A DNA stretch of 63,997 bases, filler included, from Dimargaris cristalligena (GCA_003614675.1; 16 parts of 16 records of this genome joined end to end with filler, not necessarily neighbours in it), one strand, 5' to 3'. Positions 28,439 to 48,571 are shown, numbered from the whole stretch's first letter. Translations and numbers: made by a program. Notes: generated by a model not told the origin, from the letters alone.

Positions 28439-30467
28439 CTAAACCACCCACATATAGATTAGAGGCGATTCCAGTGCCACCCGAAATGACAACAGAGCCT
28501 GTAGAAGTGCTAGTGCTTTGTTCAGTATTGGAGAATGTGACTGGACTAGAACCTGTCGTCGAAATGGTACCAGAAACGACTAAATTTCCACCTATGGTGG
28601 TATTGCTACCAACAAAGAGACTTTTCGCGATGCTTTGGCCACCATAAACTTGGAATGAGCCTGTAGATGCACTAGTTGAATCGTCAGTTTGGAAAACGGT
28701 AACATGACCTGTCCTCTTGTTTACGTTGAAAGTGACATAAGGGGCGATGATACTTGGAGAGGTCTGATTGTTTGTACGGAAATTGAAATCGGTTGCGTTA
28801 GTTTCGAATTCGCCGGAAGTGGACCCGGGTGTGCTTCTGATACTGACGTGAGAGCCGAGGGCGGAATTGATGTGAACATTGTTTCCATTGCTAGTCCAGG
28901 ATCCATTTTGAACAAACAAACTGGATCCAATCCAAACGGATTTAGCGACGCCAACTCCTCCCGCAACAGTCAGAGTACCAGTAGAAGAAGACGCGGTTTC
29001 TGTAGTTCCAAGGATTTGAACACTTTGGGTGGAGTCCCAAGTCAAAGCCACCAATTGTGATCCTGTTGTTGTCCCAAGTGCACCCCCGTTCGCACCAAAC
29101 AAGAGCGGACCTCCTGTGCTGGAAGTTGCTGAATAAACCAACCCACTGCTTTGGTCATTGGAATTTCCGAGGAAAAGATTGTTGTCATTAATCCAGACGT
29201 TTGAAGAAAAGTTGGTAATTCCAGTGAAATTTGATGCTCCGAGAACGTTGAGGACTCCGGCTATTCCAACACCACCGGAAACGACTAATGCACCAGTCGA
29301 AGAGCTGGTGGATGCTGTGGTTGTGTCAATGGTGACGTCGGTGGCGTTTATGGTCATGATGGAGACTTGAGACCCTGGAGGTGAAAATTTCAAGGGATTC
29401 CAAACGTTGGTCGTTCTAGCAAGATCGCTAGATTGAATCCAATTGGCAGAATTCGAGCATGTAAGAAGTCGAAAATTTCCAATGTTGGATGATACCCCCG
29501 CAACACTGGCGACATCAAGATAACCACCCACGAACGCATTTTTAGCGATACCAACGCCACCAGCGGTCTGAATGCTTCCCGTTGCAGTCGAAGTGGATTG
29601 AGCCGTATTTGTAAAAATAGCACTGCCGATGGTCAAGGTTTGGGTGTTTGGAGAATTGATGTTGCCACCTACATTCAACGTCAAGGCCACTGAAGCACCG
29701 CCTGCAACAGTCAAAGAACCACTGCCGACAGAAGTGGAGTCGCCGGTAGTCAACACCTGCAAACCTGCAGTGTTCACATTTACGGACCCGGAAACGTTGA
29801 AATTGGAAGTCGAAGAGCTGTTTACGTAAACATTGTGAACACCATTTTGATTGATGTAAAGATCGTTGGTAGGGCTGTTCAAAGATGTCAGTCCATTTGT
29901 GGGATTCGAGTTCAAAATCAAATTCCCTGCCAGGAAGATTGCACCGATTCCACTGCGTATATTTCCAGCGACACCTATACCTCCAGCAACGGTAAGTGCT
30001 CCATTGGTGTAAACTGTTGATTGGGTTGTGTCAGTGATCGTAACTGGACTCGAAAACGTTGATGTTCCCGAAACGGCCAATGTTGAATTCAAGGTGGTTG
30101 AACCAGTAACATTGAGAATGCCTCCCAAGTAAGTGGAAAGGGATACACCTAGGCCACCCTTGACTTGAAGGGAACCGGTGTTGGAGTTGGTTGCGTCTGT
30201 TACATTTGAGATCAAGATTCCAGTACTGAAAGTAGAAAGACCGTTGAAAGTAGAGGCAGCGTTGAATGTGGACGAATCCGCGACCGTGAACGTGGAAGAC
30301 AATGCAGTATTGCCGAGAACACCTAACGTTCCCTGAATATTAGTCGATGAACCAGCCAGCAGAGATGTTCCTGCAACCACGAGATTTCCATATCCTGAAG
30401 AGTTTACATCGTAACCGGGAACTACTGTCAAATTACCATAAGTGATTGTTCCTAAATTTGTAGCCAT
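28439..30467 (-). CDS. Virus fibre/tail-fibre-like repeat protein (>676 aa, 3'-truncated)
   Basis: Intronless, G/S/T/N/V-rich ORF with eight copies of a STS.STG(A/S)L.V.GG.G(I/V)A..L.VGG unit, a repeat type I recognise from large dsDNA virus and phage fibre proteins. No signal peptide. Confidence 0.7.
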
Positions 30468-30720
30468 AGAAAATTTCCCAGTTTAACTTATACAGAGAAA
30501 AAAAATGATCAATTTGTTGAACGGTATTAGTCAAAGAAATCAACTTGACTCCTTATCTCCACTCGACATGTCACGTAAGCGACAAATATGATTATTTTGG
30601 ATGTATTTTTATGGTTCTTCATGAGAAACGCTTTCATGTCTTATTTTGGCATTCTATTAAATGGTTCAGCAATATTTGTTTTTCAACGCAATACGGAAAT
30701 TACAGAAACGAAAAAATATG

Positions 30721-30777
30721 CATAGTTGGCAGAGTTGGCATAGTTGGTAGAGTTGGCATAGTTGGTATAGTTGGCAT
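30721..30777. repeat. 9-bp tandem repeat (C/T)A(T/G)AGTTGG, ~6 units
   Basis: CATAGTTGG CAGAGTTGG CATAGTTGG TAGAGTTGG CATAGTTGG TATAGTTGG CAT. Confidence 0.9.
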
Positions 30778-31106
30778 GGTAATATGTTGGCATTCGGAAT
30801 CATGTTTATCGATAAAGTTCCTTTTTAGTCATCTTGTTTGTGAATTGTTTTTGATTAAACAAATATCGTTATGGATTTGTAAAAATGTTTATCGATAAAT
30901 AAGAAGTTTTCCAAAGTTTTCCATAAATGTCCAATAGAAGTGTTGAGTGAAAACCGGGTTCGCACTTGACAGTTTTTGAATAATCTATCGATAAAGAGAT
31001 ATAAAGAGATATAAAAAAATCAAATACAGTTCAATTGATGTTCATCTTATTCGAATTTTGAAATGATGTTTTCAGTTATATCTATCGATAACCAGTGATT
31101 TCATTT

Positions 31107-31571
31107 TTACTCTCCCATGAACATGTCTTTAGGGAAAAATCTCATTTGGGATCTCTCATTCTTCATCTTTAACGTCAAATCCCCTTCACATCGCAGCAGT
31201 CGAATGAAGGTTTCCCCATCGAGAGCAACATGATCTATATCGATTGCATCGATGCGATCTGAATTGTGACAAAATGTTCCTCCCAGTTCTTCTCCGTTAT
31301 TATTTGAAAAAAATGTAGTCTCGTGCCACGATTCTTCCCAATCTTCACGAGTCAATCCTTCCAAGGGCTGTACGTCTCTGAGATGTAAACATTTTTCACA
31401 AAAATCATTCTGCATCTTTTTCATCAATATGCATTTTTCGTTTACAAAAATACCAATATTGTTGCCATATGCATATCCCCATATGTTGCTGTCTTCGTTT
31501 CCTTGATCGGCAGAATAATAATGACAATTTCCTTCCTTACATTTCCACTCTATAATGCATCCTTGGTTCAT
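31107..31571 (-). CDS. Hypothetical 154-aa Cys/acidic protein in virus-like context
   Basis: Intronless AT-rich ORF. It is in frame with an upstream 48-aa ORF (31721-31575), separated only by TAG TTT. Confidence 0.55.
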   Translation of the reverse strand: MNQGCIIEWKCKEGNCHYYSADQGNEDSNIWGYAYGNNIGIFVNEKCILMKKMQNDFCEKCLHLRDVQPLEGLTREDWEESWHETTFFSNNNGEELGGTFCHNSDRIDAIDIDHVALDGETFIRLLRCEGDLTLKMKNERSQMRFFPKDMFMGE

Positions 31572-31574
31572 AAA

Positions 31575-31721
31575 CTATCCCAGTTTGATTTGAATTGTCT
31601 TCAAAAAATCCTCGATTTCATTTCTTGACATTTTAAGAATTCTTTCAATTTCATCATTGTCAACTTTGACATTGCTCAGGTTTATGTGTCCAAAAGAAAA
31701 TTCTTGAATTTCGCTTGACAT
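31575..31721 (-). CDS. 48-aa ORF MSSEIQEFSFGHINLSNVKVDNDEIERILKMSRNEIEDFLKTIQIKLG; possibly the N-terminus of the next ORF
   Basis: ATG at 31721, TAG at 31577-31575; protein-like composition; not listed in the ORF track. Confidence 0.45.
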   Translation of the reverse strand: MSSEIQEFSFGHINLSNVKVDNDEIERILKMSRNEIEDFLKTIQIKLG

Positions 31722-32269
31722 GTCTACCGCTTAAAATTTGTCATAATTATACTTTTATGTACAATATTTCATCCAGATTGATTTATCTGAACATTTATCG
31801 ATAAATGGATTTGAAATGTTTACTTTTCATAATCATCATCTTCATCAAATATCAAATATCAAATATCAAATATGAAATACCAAATAACAATGTTGTTTCA
31901 ATTTTATCTATCGATAAATGAAATTAAAAAATTCACATACATTTTGTAATTATCTGGAAGCAAAAAAACTATTTTTTGTGGAATGACCAAAAATGTCTAA
32001 TAGACATTTTTAAGGAGTACCCGGGTGGCAGTAAAAGAAAAGTAAAGATTCTTTTCTCCACAGGTAATCTGTGCAAAATGAATTAAGAAGTATTGGTAAC
32101 GTCATCTATTCGTGTTTGCTAACTATCACTATTACAATTGTATATAGGCATCAGTATTGTGGACGGTTGCAGTGTTGGTGTCAGAAGTCGTGAAAGTCAG
32201 AGCAATACGAGTCTGGAATTCCAGGTATTCTGTAAAAATGCCATTAATGGATATTAAATGTGATTGTAT

Positions 32270-32385
32270 AATGTTGAAAGAATTTGCAATGGGATGGTGA
32301 TTCTAGAATGTTGAAAGAATTCGCAATGGGATTGTGAATGTATATGATTGATTGTAAAATGTTGAAAGAATTTGCAACGGGATTG
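32270..32385. repeat. Three direct copies of AATGTTGAAAGAATT(T/C)GCAA(T/C)GGGAT
   Basis: Copies at ~32270, ~32307 and ~32358, near the contig end. Confidence 0.85.
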
Positions 32386-35017
32386 TAAGTNNNNNNNNNN
32401 NNNNNNNNNNNNNNNNNNNNNNNNNNNNNNNNNNTTAATTAATTAANNNNNNNNNNNNNNNNNNNNNNNNNNNNNNNNNNNNNNNNNNNNGCGAAAAATA
32501 GATAAAAAATAAAAGTAGGTAAAAAATGTGGTAAGTTCACCACAGCCTGGTTAAAGTACTCCCATATGTTTGTATATAAGAGTAACTTTCTTTTCTCTAT
32601 TTTTCTGTGTGTCAATTTCTTTAGTTTAAATTTTAGTATCAATTTTGTGTATCTTTTCTTTTATAATAAAATTAATCTTTATTACTACTCTGGTTATTAG
32701 GATTCTGTACTTCAAGCTGTGGTTACCAAGGAATGACCCTTTGAGCTTCCAAATAAGTATTTTTTATATTAGATTACTTCAGTTAAAAATTTTATACAGT
32801 TAGGTGTATAATTATTTTTATTTGAGTGATAAACCAGTTTGCCTGGAGAAGCCACCCTGCCCTTTTGATATATTTTTGTTATTCATTTTAGTGGCCTGAT
32901 ACCACCATACTGTGACACCATAACCCAGCTCTACAATAAATGATGGGAAGTATTACCCACTAACTTGAATATAATCTATCTGGTTTCCACTTCATCCCAA
33001 GGATAAAGAGATAGTATATTTACTTTGAAGGCCCAGTAACTTAATACCTGCCACCTTTCATATCATTATCCCCTTGGTACCAGTGAATATAGATTGCATT
33101 TGGATTAGTCTGTACCCCCCAACTGGCTTAGTAGCTACTATTCAATAGTAGCCTCCCTAACTCACCCAACTGGGCTTGGTGTCACATTTTTAATTTATGA
33201 GTAATAAGAATTGCCACAGTTAACTGGGGCTTGGGTAAGGTAAGTATTCCCCTTCCTTGCATGTTTAATGGATTGGTCCAGTATCTACTAACTATCAGAT
33301 TTACACAGCCACATGAGCAAAAAACAAATCAAGCAGACCCTAGACAGCAGTTGTTTATGGTTTGACAGGCAGCAGGAAAAGTAGCCTAGAGGATAGGATG
33401 TGCTCCTTAATAGTGGTTGAAACTTAAATACCACTAGTCTTATAAATGCCCTACCCTACACACTACCAAATGGTTCACAGGAAAAACACCATTACCCTCT
33501 CCAGTTTTTTATAATATAAAATTCCTAAAGAGCAATAGTTGTGGCATGTATTTAGATATACCCCGTTTCACTACTGCCCCCTCTTAATCTAGGCCGCATC
33601 AAGCTATCTAGTCATATGTATAGTTTTTCCCTATTCCCTTCCCTCAATTTGTATTTTGTTTAAAGTAGTGCCCCTGGTCATTTCAGGATCATCCACCCTA
33701 TTACTATATTGGGTGACTCTTCCTCCGACCACCGCCCTCCTATTGCCTCCCCAATGCAAAGTATAGGCCAATTTGAATGTAAATCCTGTGGCCTTCACGG
33801 AGTTCGAAATAGGCCTTTGAAATACTCCCCTTAATCCCTATAGTGTCTTTTTATTGTATTCAAAAAAAAATGGCGGAGGGGGGGAATTCAATTGGTATCT
33901 ATAATAACCCTCCTCCCCCTAGCAACAACTAAATTCCTGCGTTTTTCGGGTAGTTCTTTTTTATTTTTTCATTATAAATCGGACATCACTACCGCAGTAC
34001 ATGCCACCCGACGTCCGGGCATTCTTCACATCGAGCTTCCGAACAGCTACCCTCATTTTTTAAGTCTCCCTCCTTCAATCGGAACAGCGCCGGTATTATT
34101 TCAACCGGTGCATTATTTTGTCTAAAAACTAAGCATGCCTCGAGGCCCATACTGAAAGTCTGATATGTGTGGTTTATGGTTTTTTTCATGAATGTCGTTA
34201 GAAAAAGGGCAGTGATTTTAGTATGGATAAATTAAAAGAATACCTCGATATTCACACATGCCATTTCAATACCGTTGATTATTAAGGTTCTTTTAATTAT
34301 ACCGCATTTGCGCTGTTCAGTAGAAGGGAGTGGGGGTGAGGGTTGAATGATACCCATATTGGGATGGAAGAAGGCTTAAGAGCAAACATGATTAGTTAAG
34401 CTGGAGTAAATTTTAATGGCAGTGTTACAGCTGTCTATCAATCTCTTTAGATATTGAGAAACGCGTTTTGGTCTACTAAAATTGTCACCGTCTGCTCGTG
34501 ATATTGTACATCACCGGTACTACCAATGGTGCAAGCCCTGGTTTTTTTTAACCAGTGCTTCCAATGTCATTGTATCCGGGGGCTTTCCAATATGCAATGC
34601 TAGGTATGAGATGTGTGCCCCTCGAACACTCAGATACGTGCTCACCAGTGACTCACCAACAAGAAGTATTGTACCCTATTGTCACAATAGGTCATGGTAT
34701 CGATATATACAACGACTACTACCCTATAGGCATGCGACTTGAAGAAATAATATACTGAAAAAACGTGTAATATCCAATCCACCAATATATGCTGAAATAT
34801 TGAAACACGACTTTATACGTCGCACTGAGGGAGAGCCTTATATTATACTAATTTATTGAAAGAATCCCAGCGTCGGATCACTTACACAGGTTGGTCAGCA
34901 GTGGGGCCAAATAGTTTTTTAATATGACCCTGTACTCTTTGACCATACTACCGAACGGGGGAGGGAGATGGGTTGTTGCTCTTGGTGAATAGTACTGCGA
35001 ATGACAAGTTTATTAAA

Positions 35018-44631: not shown

Positions 44632-47600
44632 GAGTCGGCTGAATGGGCGAAAAGGACTGCCGCAGTAAATGAAGAGGTATTGGTACCAATGGCATCATTA
44701 TACCTGCCCCTTATCAGCTCCAATTGCTTGGAATTCAATACTCAGGGTAATTCAGAGTGGCTGTCAATCACTCTAGATAGCACTGTGTCGAATTTTCTAC
44801 TGGGGGTTAACACTTGCCTGGTCCAACCCCTGGAACTGATGCTCGCAGCCTTGTTCCAGGCCCTCTACTCTTTGACGCACACGTCAACTATTACTGTTTT
44901 CAATGAGTCCCACGGCCGTCATGTGTGGGACACCAACCTTGATCCCAGTGGCACTGTAGGCTGGTTTACTACTCTGGTACCCTGTCTGGCCCAGGTTAAT
45001 ACAGACGCAGTGGATTTAGATTTCCTTAAGCTGGCCAAGCAGGCGCTCCGCTCTCCAGGCAGTACTGATAGACGGATGTGCAACCGTGAAAAAATAATAA
45101 GATACTCCGACACCTCAACTTTCCCGGAGCAACTTTATTTACCTGTGGATGTTGTATTCAACTACCTGGGGAGCACTGTGGACCAAAGCACACTAGGGCG
45201 ACAGGGCCGTTCCCCTTGGGTTCTTCGCCCTGAATTAACCTCAATCTTAGCCGTATGCGACTCCAATGAACTTCTCACTCAAATATTGGAAATTATTGGA
45301 TTACCAACCCCCGATGGCGTAGTATTTATGATACACTACTCACCACAGGTCATAGCCACAAGAGTAATTGAGTCCCTTTTGGGCCACTTCCGGGATTCCC
45401 TTGTTAATTTTACTCGTTACCTCAATCAGATCCAGCCTTCTACATTGTGGACTCCGTCCGACTTTCCTGGCCTAAAAGCCACCTTACCTGAGCTCATGAA
45501 ACTCGAATCTGAGCTTATCTCCGGTGGTATTGCCCCACACGATATCGAAGACCTCTACCCCATGCTACCCATGCAGCAGGGCATGTGGACGGCCACAGCC
45601 AAGAATTCTTCCGAATATATGATTCAATTGGCACTTACAATAACTGGCGTTACGGATTTAGACCAAATTTACACTGCGACCAAAGCCATTGTTGCTGACC
45701 ACGCCATTTTGCGTACCATGTTTCTGACTACGTGGAGTAATCAGTACTGCAATGGTATCCAGATTGTCATCCGAGCCCCACATTTTGAATGGCACGTCCT
45801 CAATGAGTGGGTGGATGCGGGCGCCAACTGTGAAGACGAGCTCCTACGGCTAAATCAGGAGCGGGGGTTTACACAAAACGAGCCACTACTACGAGTCTAT
45901 GTTAAGCAGTTGTCATCCACTTCGTTCCGCTACCTGCTAGCTATTCACCACGCCCTAACTGATGGCTGGTCAATGGGACTTATTTTTCAGCAACTCCAGA
46001 TGCGGTTGCAAAATAGACTCCCGTCCCAATCGGGAGCTGCCCTATTTTTCCGCGACTATGCCAGGTATTGCCTAAACTCCTATACTCCGGAAGCCAAATT
46101 ATTCTGGGGCGATTACCTTCAAGGAGTCGAGCAGCCCACTGAGTTGGAGCTTCCTAAACCTTTAAATGGGCCTAGATCCCGGTGTATGTTGGAGTTCCAC
46201 TTTACCTTGTTCTCCGAGTATGACAGAGCCCAGCGAGTTGTCAAACATTTTGGATGTACTCTATATGCAGTCATTCAGTCATGTTGGGCCATCCTGCTTA
46301 GTCGCTATACCGGCCAAACTAATGTCATATTTGGTAACACTGTATCGGGTCGAGCACTTCCCTTAGCAGATATCGAATCACTTGTAGGGTGTCTCATTAG
46401 CGGATAACATCGGAAGATCATCGATGAGAGTGTGCTTTTCCGAAGCCTCGAGGGCGCAAACCAGTCCATTAATTCCTCGTCCCAAAGGATGATTCCGTTT
46501 GAACACCATCATTTAGCGAAGATCAATGCATGGGTGGATGGTGAGGTCCGCCCCAGTGATATGTTCAATACTTTGGTGGTCTATGAGAACTACCCTGCCA
46601 ATGGGTTGGAAAACTCGAATCAAACAGTTACTGTTACAGAGACTATGTCGGTTGAATCCACGGAATATCCCTTAACTGTGATTGCTCAAGTGGAGCATGA
46701 TGAAATTAACGTGTGTTTGAGCTGGGATTCGTCTCAGTTTGGACAACATTATGTGGAGACTCTGGCCCGGCATTTGTGCACCTTATTCAATGGACTGGTT
46801 TGCGCCCTCGAGGCTTCGGAAAAGCACACTCTCATCGATGATCTTCCGATGTTATCCGCTAATGAGACTGCATTAGTCACCGAACAGTTTTCCCGCCCAA
46901 CTCTGGCCATCGATTTCGATGCTAGTGTGCCCCGCCTATTTACTGATTCTGCCAAGGCCATTCCTGATACCATTGCAGTTGAGTACAAGGATATCCATTG
47001 GACCTACAGGGAGTTGTATAACCAATCGATTAACTTGGCTCACCGATTGCAGCATTATGGCGTTCAACGTGAGGCGTCAATTGGTCTTTTAATCGACCGG
47101 CTGCCCAGTACTATCGCGGCTTTTATGGGTGTTCACCAAGCCGGTGCCGCCTTTGTACCCCTCGACCCCACCTTCCCCGTCGATCGACTCAGCTACATAG
47201 TGGAGGACTGTGGTATCCGATTAGTGCTTACGAATATAGCCGACCGGGACAAGTTGGAGTCTATTCGACGACTCCTTGCTGGTATCGAGTTCCTAGCTAT
47301 AGATGACTGTCTACTCCCCCTTCATCTACTCTCGGGCGAATTGCCACAATTACCCCTGATTAAGCCTACCGACTTATCACATATCCTTTACACATCAGGC
47401 ACTACGGGCCGGCCCAAGGGTGTCCAGCTGGAACACCGCCTGATGGCCAACTATGTTCAACAGGCCGAGTCAACGGTTTGCATAACCCCTGGATTGCGGC
47501 TAATGCAGAATATGGCCCTGACGTTTGATGGTGCACTGCTTGAAATCTTCACCTGTCTATGCAAAGGTGGTACCATTGTCATGCGCACCGACATTCTAGA

Positions 47601-48571
47601 CACCCTGCCCATGGTAGAGGCCTTACTAGCCACGCCAACTGTTCTAGCGTCCTTGGACCCATCCAAGTACCCCAAGTTAAAAAAGGTCATGGCCGCGGGT
47701 GAGGCCCTTCCACGCCAAGTGGCCGAGCGTTGGGCGAATCATTGTCGGGTGTTCAATTTTTATGGACCCACTGAATGTCTCATGTCGCACTCCATCGAAT
47801 ACACACCGGGAAGTGCGCTTACTGTTGGCAAACCAGTTCCCAACACCGAGGCCTATATCCTTGACCGGAATCTCCGCCCTGTACCCGTTGGGGTGCGGGG
47901 AGAAATCTGTGTTGCGGGTATTCAAGTCACCCGAGGCTACGTCAACTTACCCGAGCTTACTCGTGAACGACTATTACCCAATCCCTTTACTGGCAATGGC
48001 CTCCTCTACCGTACGGGTGATACTGGGCGCTGGCTGGCTGATGGCACAGTCGAGTATTTTTCTCGACATGATGACCAGGTAAAAATCCGCGGGCATCGAA
48101 TTGAGCCCCAAGAAATCGAGACTGTCCTACTTAGTCATCCCGACGTGAAGAGTGCCGCCGTTGTCATCGTCAATCGAAAGATTTACGCATTTGTCTGCCC
48201 TAGTTCAGTAACAGTCGAGTCCGTTAAGTCACACATTGGTCGGATTCTACCTGCCTATATGAACCCCAACGCCATATTTTATATTGACGAGTTACCCCGC
48301 AACACCAATGGCAAGACAGACAAGCATGCTTTGGCTGCAAGAATCGCCGAATTAACCTCAATGGATACTGGTCGTACTATTACAGCACCGCAGAATCCAG
48401 TGCAGGTCCTAGTCGTGGAGGCCCTCAGCCAGACGTTGGATATTCCCTGTGACCAGATTGATATTTATGACTCATTTTTCCAACTCGGTGGCGACTCGAT
48501 TTCTGCCATTCGCCTGTCCTCCCTCTGCCGAGACCGTGGTCTACATATTTCAATCGCCCAGGTGTTCAAGT
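44632..48571 (+). CDS. Non-ribosomal peptide synthetase fragment: E(partial)-C-A-T, interrupted by an in-frame TAA at 46405-46407
   Basis: E domain: NESHGR, TVGWFT, FNYLG, TPSDFP. C domain: YPMLPMQQGM, IHHALTDGWS, FGNTVSGR. A domain: YTSGTTGRPKG, FYGPTE, YRTGD, KIRGHRIE, NGKTDK. T domain: FFQLGGDSI. Both ORFs are in the same frame. Confidence 0.95.

Follow-up and report, generated by a model that had tools for sequence, protein, structure and literature searches.

A virus-type fibre gene on a contig of probable giant-virus origin in the assembly of the fungus Dimargaris cristalligena

The assembly of the fungus Dimargaris cristalligena contains a short contig that we favour, on balance, as a fragment of a large eukaryotic double-stranded DNA virus, probably of the Nucleocytoviricota. 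The contig belongs to a stretch of 63,997 bases (hereafter the window) that is not one locus, since it was made by concatenating 16 contigs of 3.2-4.0 kb with N44-TTAATTAATTAA-N44 spacers; positions 28439-32390 are exactly one whole contig of 3,952 bp. Here we describe the fibre gene that begins on this contig, whose product is very probably a virus-type trimeric fibre, and the composition and spacer signals by which the contig is, with good confidence, foreign to the fungal core genome. The virus fragment would have been integrated in, or carried along with, the sequenced fungal culture.

The fibre gene and its relatives

The gene at the centre of this analysis runs to the edge of the contig:

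28439..30467, minus strand: 5' part of the fibre gene, 676 codons, ATG at 30467, uninterrupted to the contig end, which cuts off its 3' end

A first-pass annotation of the window, made from the sequence alone, had claimed a protein of more than 676 amino acids (aa), free of introns and with eight repeat units of the type STS..TG.L.V.GG.G(I/V), and in each of these points it was right. The GG cores of the eight units were located in the 676-codon frame at residues 104, 162, 256, 303, 398, 503, 609 and 663, and a stricter regular expression recovers seven of them. The frame needs no intron and is open to the contig end, and the full-length relatives, of 1,474-1,508 aa, are collinear with it. Sequence comparison shows that this open reading frame (ORF) covers the N-terminal 45% of a protein of ~1,490 aa that belongs to a conserved fibre family. 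The gene is truncated by assembly and not by mutation, because in sequencing run X1 a contig of 4,543 nucleotides (nt) spans 28439-31873 with 10 differences and runs on for 1,108 nt past 28439. A public D. cristalligena model, BJ085DRAFT_33897, is 99% identical to the ORF. The public gene model P0003 (603 aa) keeps to the open frame up to residue 581 but then, at 28439-28725, abandons it for 22 residues of unrelated sequence; since all relatives remain in the frame there, its last exon looks spurious.

The closest company of the window's 676-residue fibre part (P0001) comes from soil metagenomes. Two contigs, L002 (8,227 bp) and L003 (9,537 bp), encode fibres of 1,491 aa that are 62-64% identical over residues 1-676, and two shorter contigs, L004 and L005, carry only the 5' part of the gene. 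When the C-terminal 342 residues of the L003 fibre were used as query and 8,000 candidates were scored, 24 proteins were found at an E-value (E) of up to 0.001, and 16 of these are full-length members (1,474-1,508 aa) with 53-82% identity in the query region. The same 16 share 43-66% identity with the window's part, and mean column identity in an 18-row family alignment is 65%. Family members lie on contigs of up to 372,196, 152,247, 147,402 and 128,653 bp, and a 971-aa family fragment (P0006) lies on one of 135,389 bp.

P0001 has no Pfam family at threshold and no match at E up to 1 in a PDB sequence search. Profile searches matched it to PHROG 697 ('structural protein', E 1e-11) and PHROG 3018 ('head decoration', E 3.2e-4). 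Prediction with three copies of residues 1-330 gave a trimer score of 0.85, against 0.00 for the best of three controls. Among solved proteins, the mark used for the score was attained by 21 of the 30 that form pairs of one chain but by none of the 23 that are single chains, counts that are only rough for a trimer because the calibration used two copies. Three trimer runs agreed in at least 92% of contacts with a partner predicted local distance difference test (pLDDT) of at least 89, and the predicted inter-chain contacts are staggered from i to i+6. The models support a three-stranded, intertwined and beta-structured shaft formed by residues 1-330. An AlphaFold model of the P0001 monomer reached a pLDDT of 56.4 and gave BFVD matches with template modelling (TM) scores of at most 0.18 to a mixture of phage and giant-virus proteins, and was treated as meaningless.

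Together with the PHROG matches, the predicted trimer agrees with the first-pass description of a virus-type fibre. In such a protein, three chains would wind into one long shaft of STS..TG.L.V.GG.G(I/V)A..L.VGG units, the N-terminus may anchor the shaft on the particle, and the C-terminal head of ~340 aa seen in full-length relatives presumably binds the host surface.

It is this head, itself outside the window, that points to giant viruses. Modelled at a pLDDT of 72.3, the head of the full-length relatives has as its two best BFVD matches A0A1X9VNT2 (E 8.6e-23; 33% identity over 341 columns) and A0A1X9VNQ1 (E 4.4e-20), both labelled Mimivirus AB-566-O17. These proteins differ from the family in length (756 and 825 aa), and their TM-scores on the query, 0.46 and 0.43, are modest, a consequence of differing domain arrangements in the models. 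Most other BFVD matches are to phage tail proteins, through a shared sub-domain of ~90 residues. In the Atlas, the head lies closest to three clusters described as 'Viruses 100%, commonest Nucleocytoviricota' (scores 0.93, 0.91 and 0.89), and a fold search of PDB with the head model returned no match at E up to 0.001.

A second line of evidence comes from another fungal assembly. KAJ3371231.1 (P0009) of Allomyces arbusculus is likewise a long fibre that has this repeat unit and whose C-terminal head is homologous; identity is 36% over 534 columns that include the head (E 3e-70). The protein lies on a contig of 333,850 bp. It differs in its length of 1,113 aa against ~1,490 aa, in having another N-terminus, and in matching the fibre part present in the window at only 31% identity, within the repeats (261 columns, E 2e-19). 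According to the paper describing Mycodnaviridae, the mycodnavirus of A. arbusculus consists of two contigs of 345,111 bp in total (PMC13533422).

Composition and spacer signals of the contig

Apart from the fibre gene the contig holds two ORFs and a set of short spacer elements:

31107..31571, minus strand: ORF154, Cys/His-rich, 154 aa
31575..31721, minus strand: 48-codon ORF, in frame with ORF154, with one TAG codon and one further codon between them
30807..30814, no strand: TATCGATA palindrome, site 1
30890..30897, no strand: TATCGATA palindrome, site 2
30986..30993, no strand: TATCGATA palindrome, site 3
31083..31090, no strand: TATCGATA palindrome, site 4, 17 nt beyond the ORF154 stop
31796..31803, no strand: TATCGATA palindrome, site 5, 75 nt upstream of the 48-codon ORF
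31909..31916, no strand: TATCGATA palindrome, site 6
30481..30505, minus strand: conserved upstream element (T-run, spacer, A(A/G)T(A/T/C)AA(A/T)C), ending 13 nt before the fibre ATG
31583..31608, minus strand: conserved upstream element, copy 2, ending 11 nt before the ORF154 ATG

The two smaller ORFs lie on the strand of the fibre gene, and with the 676-codon frame they make the contig 63-67% coding, in line with the compact same-strand arrangement noticed earlier. The AT-rich spacers were also said to keep their CpG dinucleotides, which our counts bear out: GC content is 30% and the observed/expected ratio (o/e) of CpG is 0.92, or 0.74 with the six TATCGATA CpGs masked. In the eight other window contigs of 40-43% GC, CpG o/e is 0.37-0.75. 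TpA o/e is 0.61 in the contig's non-fibre part, compared with ~1.0 in other window contigs, and the CC/GG value of its signature is about 1.0. Dinucleotide distances from this part to the non-fibre parts of L005, L002 and L003 are 56, 80 and 126, and those to the other 15 window contigs are 156-284, so that the contig is compositionally foreign to them, as had been proposed. Ordinary eukaryotic genes occur on other window contigs, including PIP5K, EPL1, spermidine synthase, modules of non-ribosomal peptide synthetases (NRPS) and a HAD-type hydrolase domain.

The palindrome TATCGATA occurs seven times in the whole window where 0.89 sites are expected. Six of the seven are on the contig described here, all outside its two larger ORFs, and 14 of the 15 other window contigs have none. 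The sole remaining site, at 34698-34705, is at chance level, being a single site on a contig of host-like composition. L002 contains seven sites against 0.05 expected, every one intergenic, and L003 seven against 0.06 expected, six of which avoid the main ORFs. In many cases the next start codon follows 45-220 nt downstream of a site. The shared TATCGATA style and the dinucleotide signature together set the contig apart from the bulk of the assembly and make it of one kind with the soil contigs.

L002-L005 each contain a single copy of the conserved upstream element, placed 21-26 nt ahead of the fibre ATG; the window contig contains two, and the element occurs nowhere else in these five contigs. 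Only this uniqueness counts, since the pattern was derived from the same sequences. We infer that TATCGATA and the upstream element may be transcription signals of the virus lineage. In the literature searched, judged by titles and abstracts, there was no account of TATCGATA, or of ATCGAT in giant-virus promoters, as a viral regulatory motif, and the words 'promoter' and 'motif' are absent from the main text of the Mycodnaviridae paper (PMC13533422). A hunt through IMG/VR for two TATCGATA within 30 nt yielded 117 stretches, and the densest records proved to be 14-bp tandem arrays with ~0.1 site per kb overall, and therefore not of the genome style of the contig.

The related contigs are densely coded, L002 at 92% and L003 at 78-83%. 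Their genes lie on both strands and need no introns, and two convergent genes overlap by 4 bp. Of 10 scanned neighbour ORFs of L002, L003 and L005, three have a confident Pfam family and seven have none. High gene density, intronless genes and orphan genes (L002, L003) thus occur together with a composition unlike that of the host (dinucleotide distances).

Occurrence in sequencing runs and origin of the contig

DNA of the contig is present in six sequencing runs from three studies and under three organism labels; no RNA run is among those listed with it. Run X2 matches it exactly or nearly so (0-1 differences per piece) at a depth of 3-8, and X1 contains a variant differing by 0.3% at a depth of 492. 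Run X6 covers 20 of 30 bins, and its holes are not interpreted. The window's copy of the fibre gene is intact as far as it is present. In run X3, at about 29427-30214, a second fibre variant diverged by 6-9% stands beside the window's version at equal or higher depth, and the differences listed include two in-frame stops (codons 337 and 114). The divergence and the stops suggest at least two copies, one of them decayed. Two copies would fit endogenous copies better than a single free genome, with contig-end errors as another possible source of such differences. D. cristalligena is reported to have been grown in dual culture with Cokeromyces recurvatus, a host that also served another project species; the culture can be obtained, and the fungus grows without a host on supplemented media (PMC6784888). 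A shared-host source of the DNA is accordingly a live possibility.

A giant-virus origin of the contig was the central claim of the first-pass annotation, and what can be said for it is indirect: the C-terminal head of the relatives, the Allomyces homolog and the gene density of the soil contigs. The published record adds that D. cristalligena has one match to a capsid protein, as the sole non-zoosporic fungus with one (PMC13533422); no link of that match to the present contig is shown. A literature search combining 'Dimargaris' with giant viruses returned only this paper and its preprints.

Several observations weigh against a giant-virus origin. The signal comes from the head of the relatives and not from the 676 residues in the window, whose nearest Atlas clusters either lack recorded taxa or consist of phage tail proteins. 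Success in the trimer prediction may in part reflect likeness to solved phage fibres, which have similar shafts. For the Allomyces homolog, the size of its contig is the single argument from which a viral nature is deduced. No capsid, PolB, A32, VLTF3 or D5 gene was found on the contig or on L002-L005 (~28 kb in all, ~24 kb of it on the related contigs). Three scans of IMG/VR, which rely on a few exact peptide patterns, produced no family member (one weak phage-like locus; 0 of 55 and 0 of 36 stretches). L004 and L005 contain no TATCGATA, and the neighbours that can be named in relatives are cellular gene types, namely a fungal-type chitin deacetylase, C2H2 zinc fingers and HSP20. Finally, near-identical DNA under three organism labels in three studies could stem from a shared co-culture partner or contaminant. 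Further IMG/VR scans with the neighbour proteins and with the head domain confirmed 0 of 26 and 0 of 8 stretches, and a comparison of the head domain with three large IMG/VR records gave no match and is uninformative.

The alternative that survives best, which we consider unlikely though worth serious attention, is a cellular eukaryotic locus: a gene of viral descent (old, domesticated or decaying) that resides in the nuclear DNA of Dimargaris or of its co-cultured fungus, with the soil contigs being pieces of fungal chromosomes. The cellular neighbours in relatives would fit it (the chitin deacetylase matches PDB 8he1 at E 5.6e-50), as would the annotation of relatives in Allomyces and Quaeritorhiza assemblies and the in-frame stops of the second variant in X3. 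So would the reported dual culture with C. recurvatus (PMC6784888), which could account for three organism labels and a composition unlike that of Dimargaris. However, L002 and L003 are 78-92% coding with a convergent overlap and no need for introns, and 7 of their 10 scanned neighbour ORFs, L005 included, lack a confident Pfam family. Moreover, a length of 1,474-1,508 aa and the sequence itself have been kept across 16 members, which argues for purifying selection on a virion-type protein, and soil-metagenome contigs of 128-372 kb are atypical of fungi.

Less probable still is an origin outside the Nucleocytoviricota, from another large DNA virus of eukaryotes or from a virus-like mobile element, with a phage-like trimeric fibre and an undescribed genome style of TATCGATA spacers. 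It would explain why no hallmark gene is seen on the contig or on L002-L005, why the family is missing from IMG/VR, which has many giant-virus bins, and why phage tail proteins are as close to the window's own part as any other group. Against it, the head finds its best structural and feature matches in giant-virus proteins, the Allomyces homolog lies on a contig of mycodnavirus size, and a capsid match for D. cristalligena has been published (PMC13533422).

A bacterial or phage contaminant, carrying an autotransporter-type adhesin or a phage tail fibre, is largely refuted and very improbable. In its favour, the Joint Genome Institute's automatic name 'fibronectin-binding autotransporter adhesin' is attached to the distant relatives P0016, P0072 and P0109 and to the full-length P0130, weak matches include a Saprospiraceae protein (E 1.9e-11), and PHROG families and phage proteins match P0001 and the ~90-residue head sub-domain respectively. 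Against it, P0001 and a 1,491-aa relative are both free of autotransporter, YadA and Peptidase_S74 domains, a search of 185,579 prokaryote species (one genome each) confirmed 0 of 24 candidate stretches, P0001 is unmatched in 50,697 phage records at E 1e-5, and the neighbour genes in relatives are of eukaryotic type. The origin from a bacterial autotransporter that the first-pass annotation had allowed for is disfavoured by the same domain and prokaryote searches.

Trimeric phage tail fibres and tailspikes (Peptidase_S74, PF13884; PHROG 697) also have a repeat-built trimeric shaft, and two more distant relatives of the window's protein, P0018 and P0040, carry PF13884, whereas P0001 and the 1,491-aa P0125 do not; the eukaryote-type neighbours and the lack of a phage-record match for P0001 are further differences. 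The head has one partial match among the phage records, covering 24% of the query. Bacterial trimeric autotransporter adhesins share a repetitive, beta-structured trimeric shaft rich in Gly, Ser and Thr, but the family has no YadA or translocator domain, and P0001 shows no signal peptide when judged by eye.

If the contig is indeed a fragment of a giant virus, its closest known counterparts would be the Mycodnaviridae, to which the distant Allomyces fibre homolog is the one link and whose hosts are zoosporic, whereas the present host is not. To our knowledge, zoosporic lineages are the only fungi for which giant viruses have yet been demonstrated. We offer tentatively the further possibility that the contig comes from an undescribed soil clade of giant viruses infecting walled, non-zoosporic (zygomycete-type) fungi. 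Such a clade would be marked by a trimeric fibre of ~1,490 aa with a head of giant-virus type and by TATCGATA as a regulatory palindrome. At least one member would have a secreted chitin-binding chitin deacetylase that could act on the host wall, and the Dimargaris/Cokeromyces culture would persistently harbour such a virus, in an integrated or latent state and in more than a single copy.

A giant-virus trace in D. cristalligena is already in print in the form of the one capsid match, and the fibre family and the TATCGATA motif are not described in the literature searched. Were a giant-virus origin correct, evidence for a virus in D. cristalligena or in a culture partner would extend beyond one gene. 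The conserved structural gene would provide a second marker for these viruses in soil metagenomes (16 full-length relatives, contigs of up to 372 kb), and the candidate regulatory motif and composition signature would help in binning the rest of the viral genome from the assembly.

Other reading frames, repeats and neighbouring genes

ORF154 has no Pfam or PHROG family and no homolog in a word index, and the 48-codon ORF likewise falls into no family. A HMMER search of 1.84 billion representatives gave one relative, P0123, with 77% identity over residues 1-81 (E 4.9e-34); a second candidate, P0124, showed a weak repeat match (E 1.6e-4) that was taken as chance. The first 452 residues of P0123 match, at 29% identity (E 4e-5), the L003 fibre gene read in antisense, and P0123 is therefore probably an over-long ORF call that includes the antisense of a fibre-like gene. 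The TAG at 31575-31577, between ORF154 and the 48-codon ORF, reads TGG in the X1 variant and corresponds to W in P0123, so a fusion of the two ORFs of ~204 aa may be the real gene.

Two kinds of repeats complete the features of the contig:

30720..30777, no strand: 9-bp tandem repeat GCATAGTTG, 6.4 copies, between the fibre start and the first TATCGATA
32261..32386, no strand: 38-nt direct repeat in three copies at the contig end (repeats of 37-51 bp)

The contig-end repeats (32261-32390) reach 8-18 times the contig depth in the runs, and in X1 the last bin of the contig has a depth of 3,866 against 492. Loose ends at this repeat-rich right end join many different flanks, some of them with TTTATCGATAAATGAG, which holds the TATCGATA motif. 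Being multi-copy and joined to many flanks, the 38-nt repeat is a dispersed spacer repeat of the source genome, and it likely caused the break in the assembly.

Among the neighbours of the fibre gene in related contigs, those with names are a C2H2 zinc-finger protein with HTGEKP linkers (L002) and, on L003, HSP20 and a chitin-binding/chitin deacetylase protein. The latter (L003 3654-4637, minus strand; best PDB match 8he1, as above) is secreted, combines chitin binding with a fungal-type chitin deacetylase, and is oriented head-to-head to the fibre gene. Three of the four related contigs (L003 3146-3640, L004 109-723 and L005 1656-2189) also encode, upstream of their fibre genes, a small conserved coiled-coil protein whose C-terminal tail is rich in Cys; the window contig has no counterpart of it. 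L002 2-1438 encodes a 478-aa protein with cysteine repeats of the type C.H....C..C...C.H and a C-terminal globular part, without a Pfam or PDB relative. Directly after the fibre stop, L002 6626-6644 forms a perfect GC-rich hairpin with an 8-bp stem and a 3-nt loop, with no evident counterpart behind the L003 fibre gene. Elsewhere in the window, at 44680-48570 on a neighbouring contig, NRPS modules with condensation, AMP-binding and carrier domains occupy two long intronless frames.

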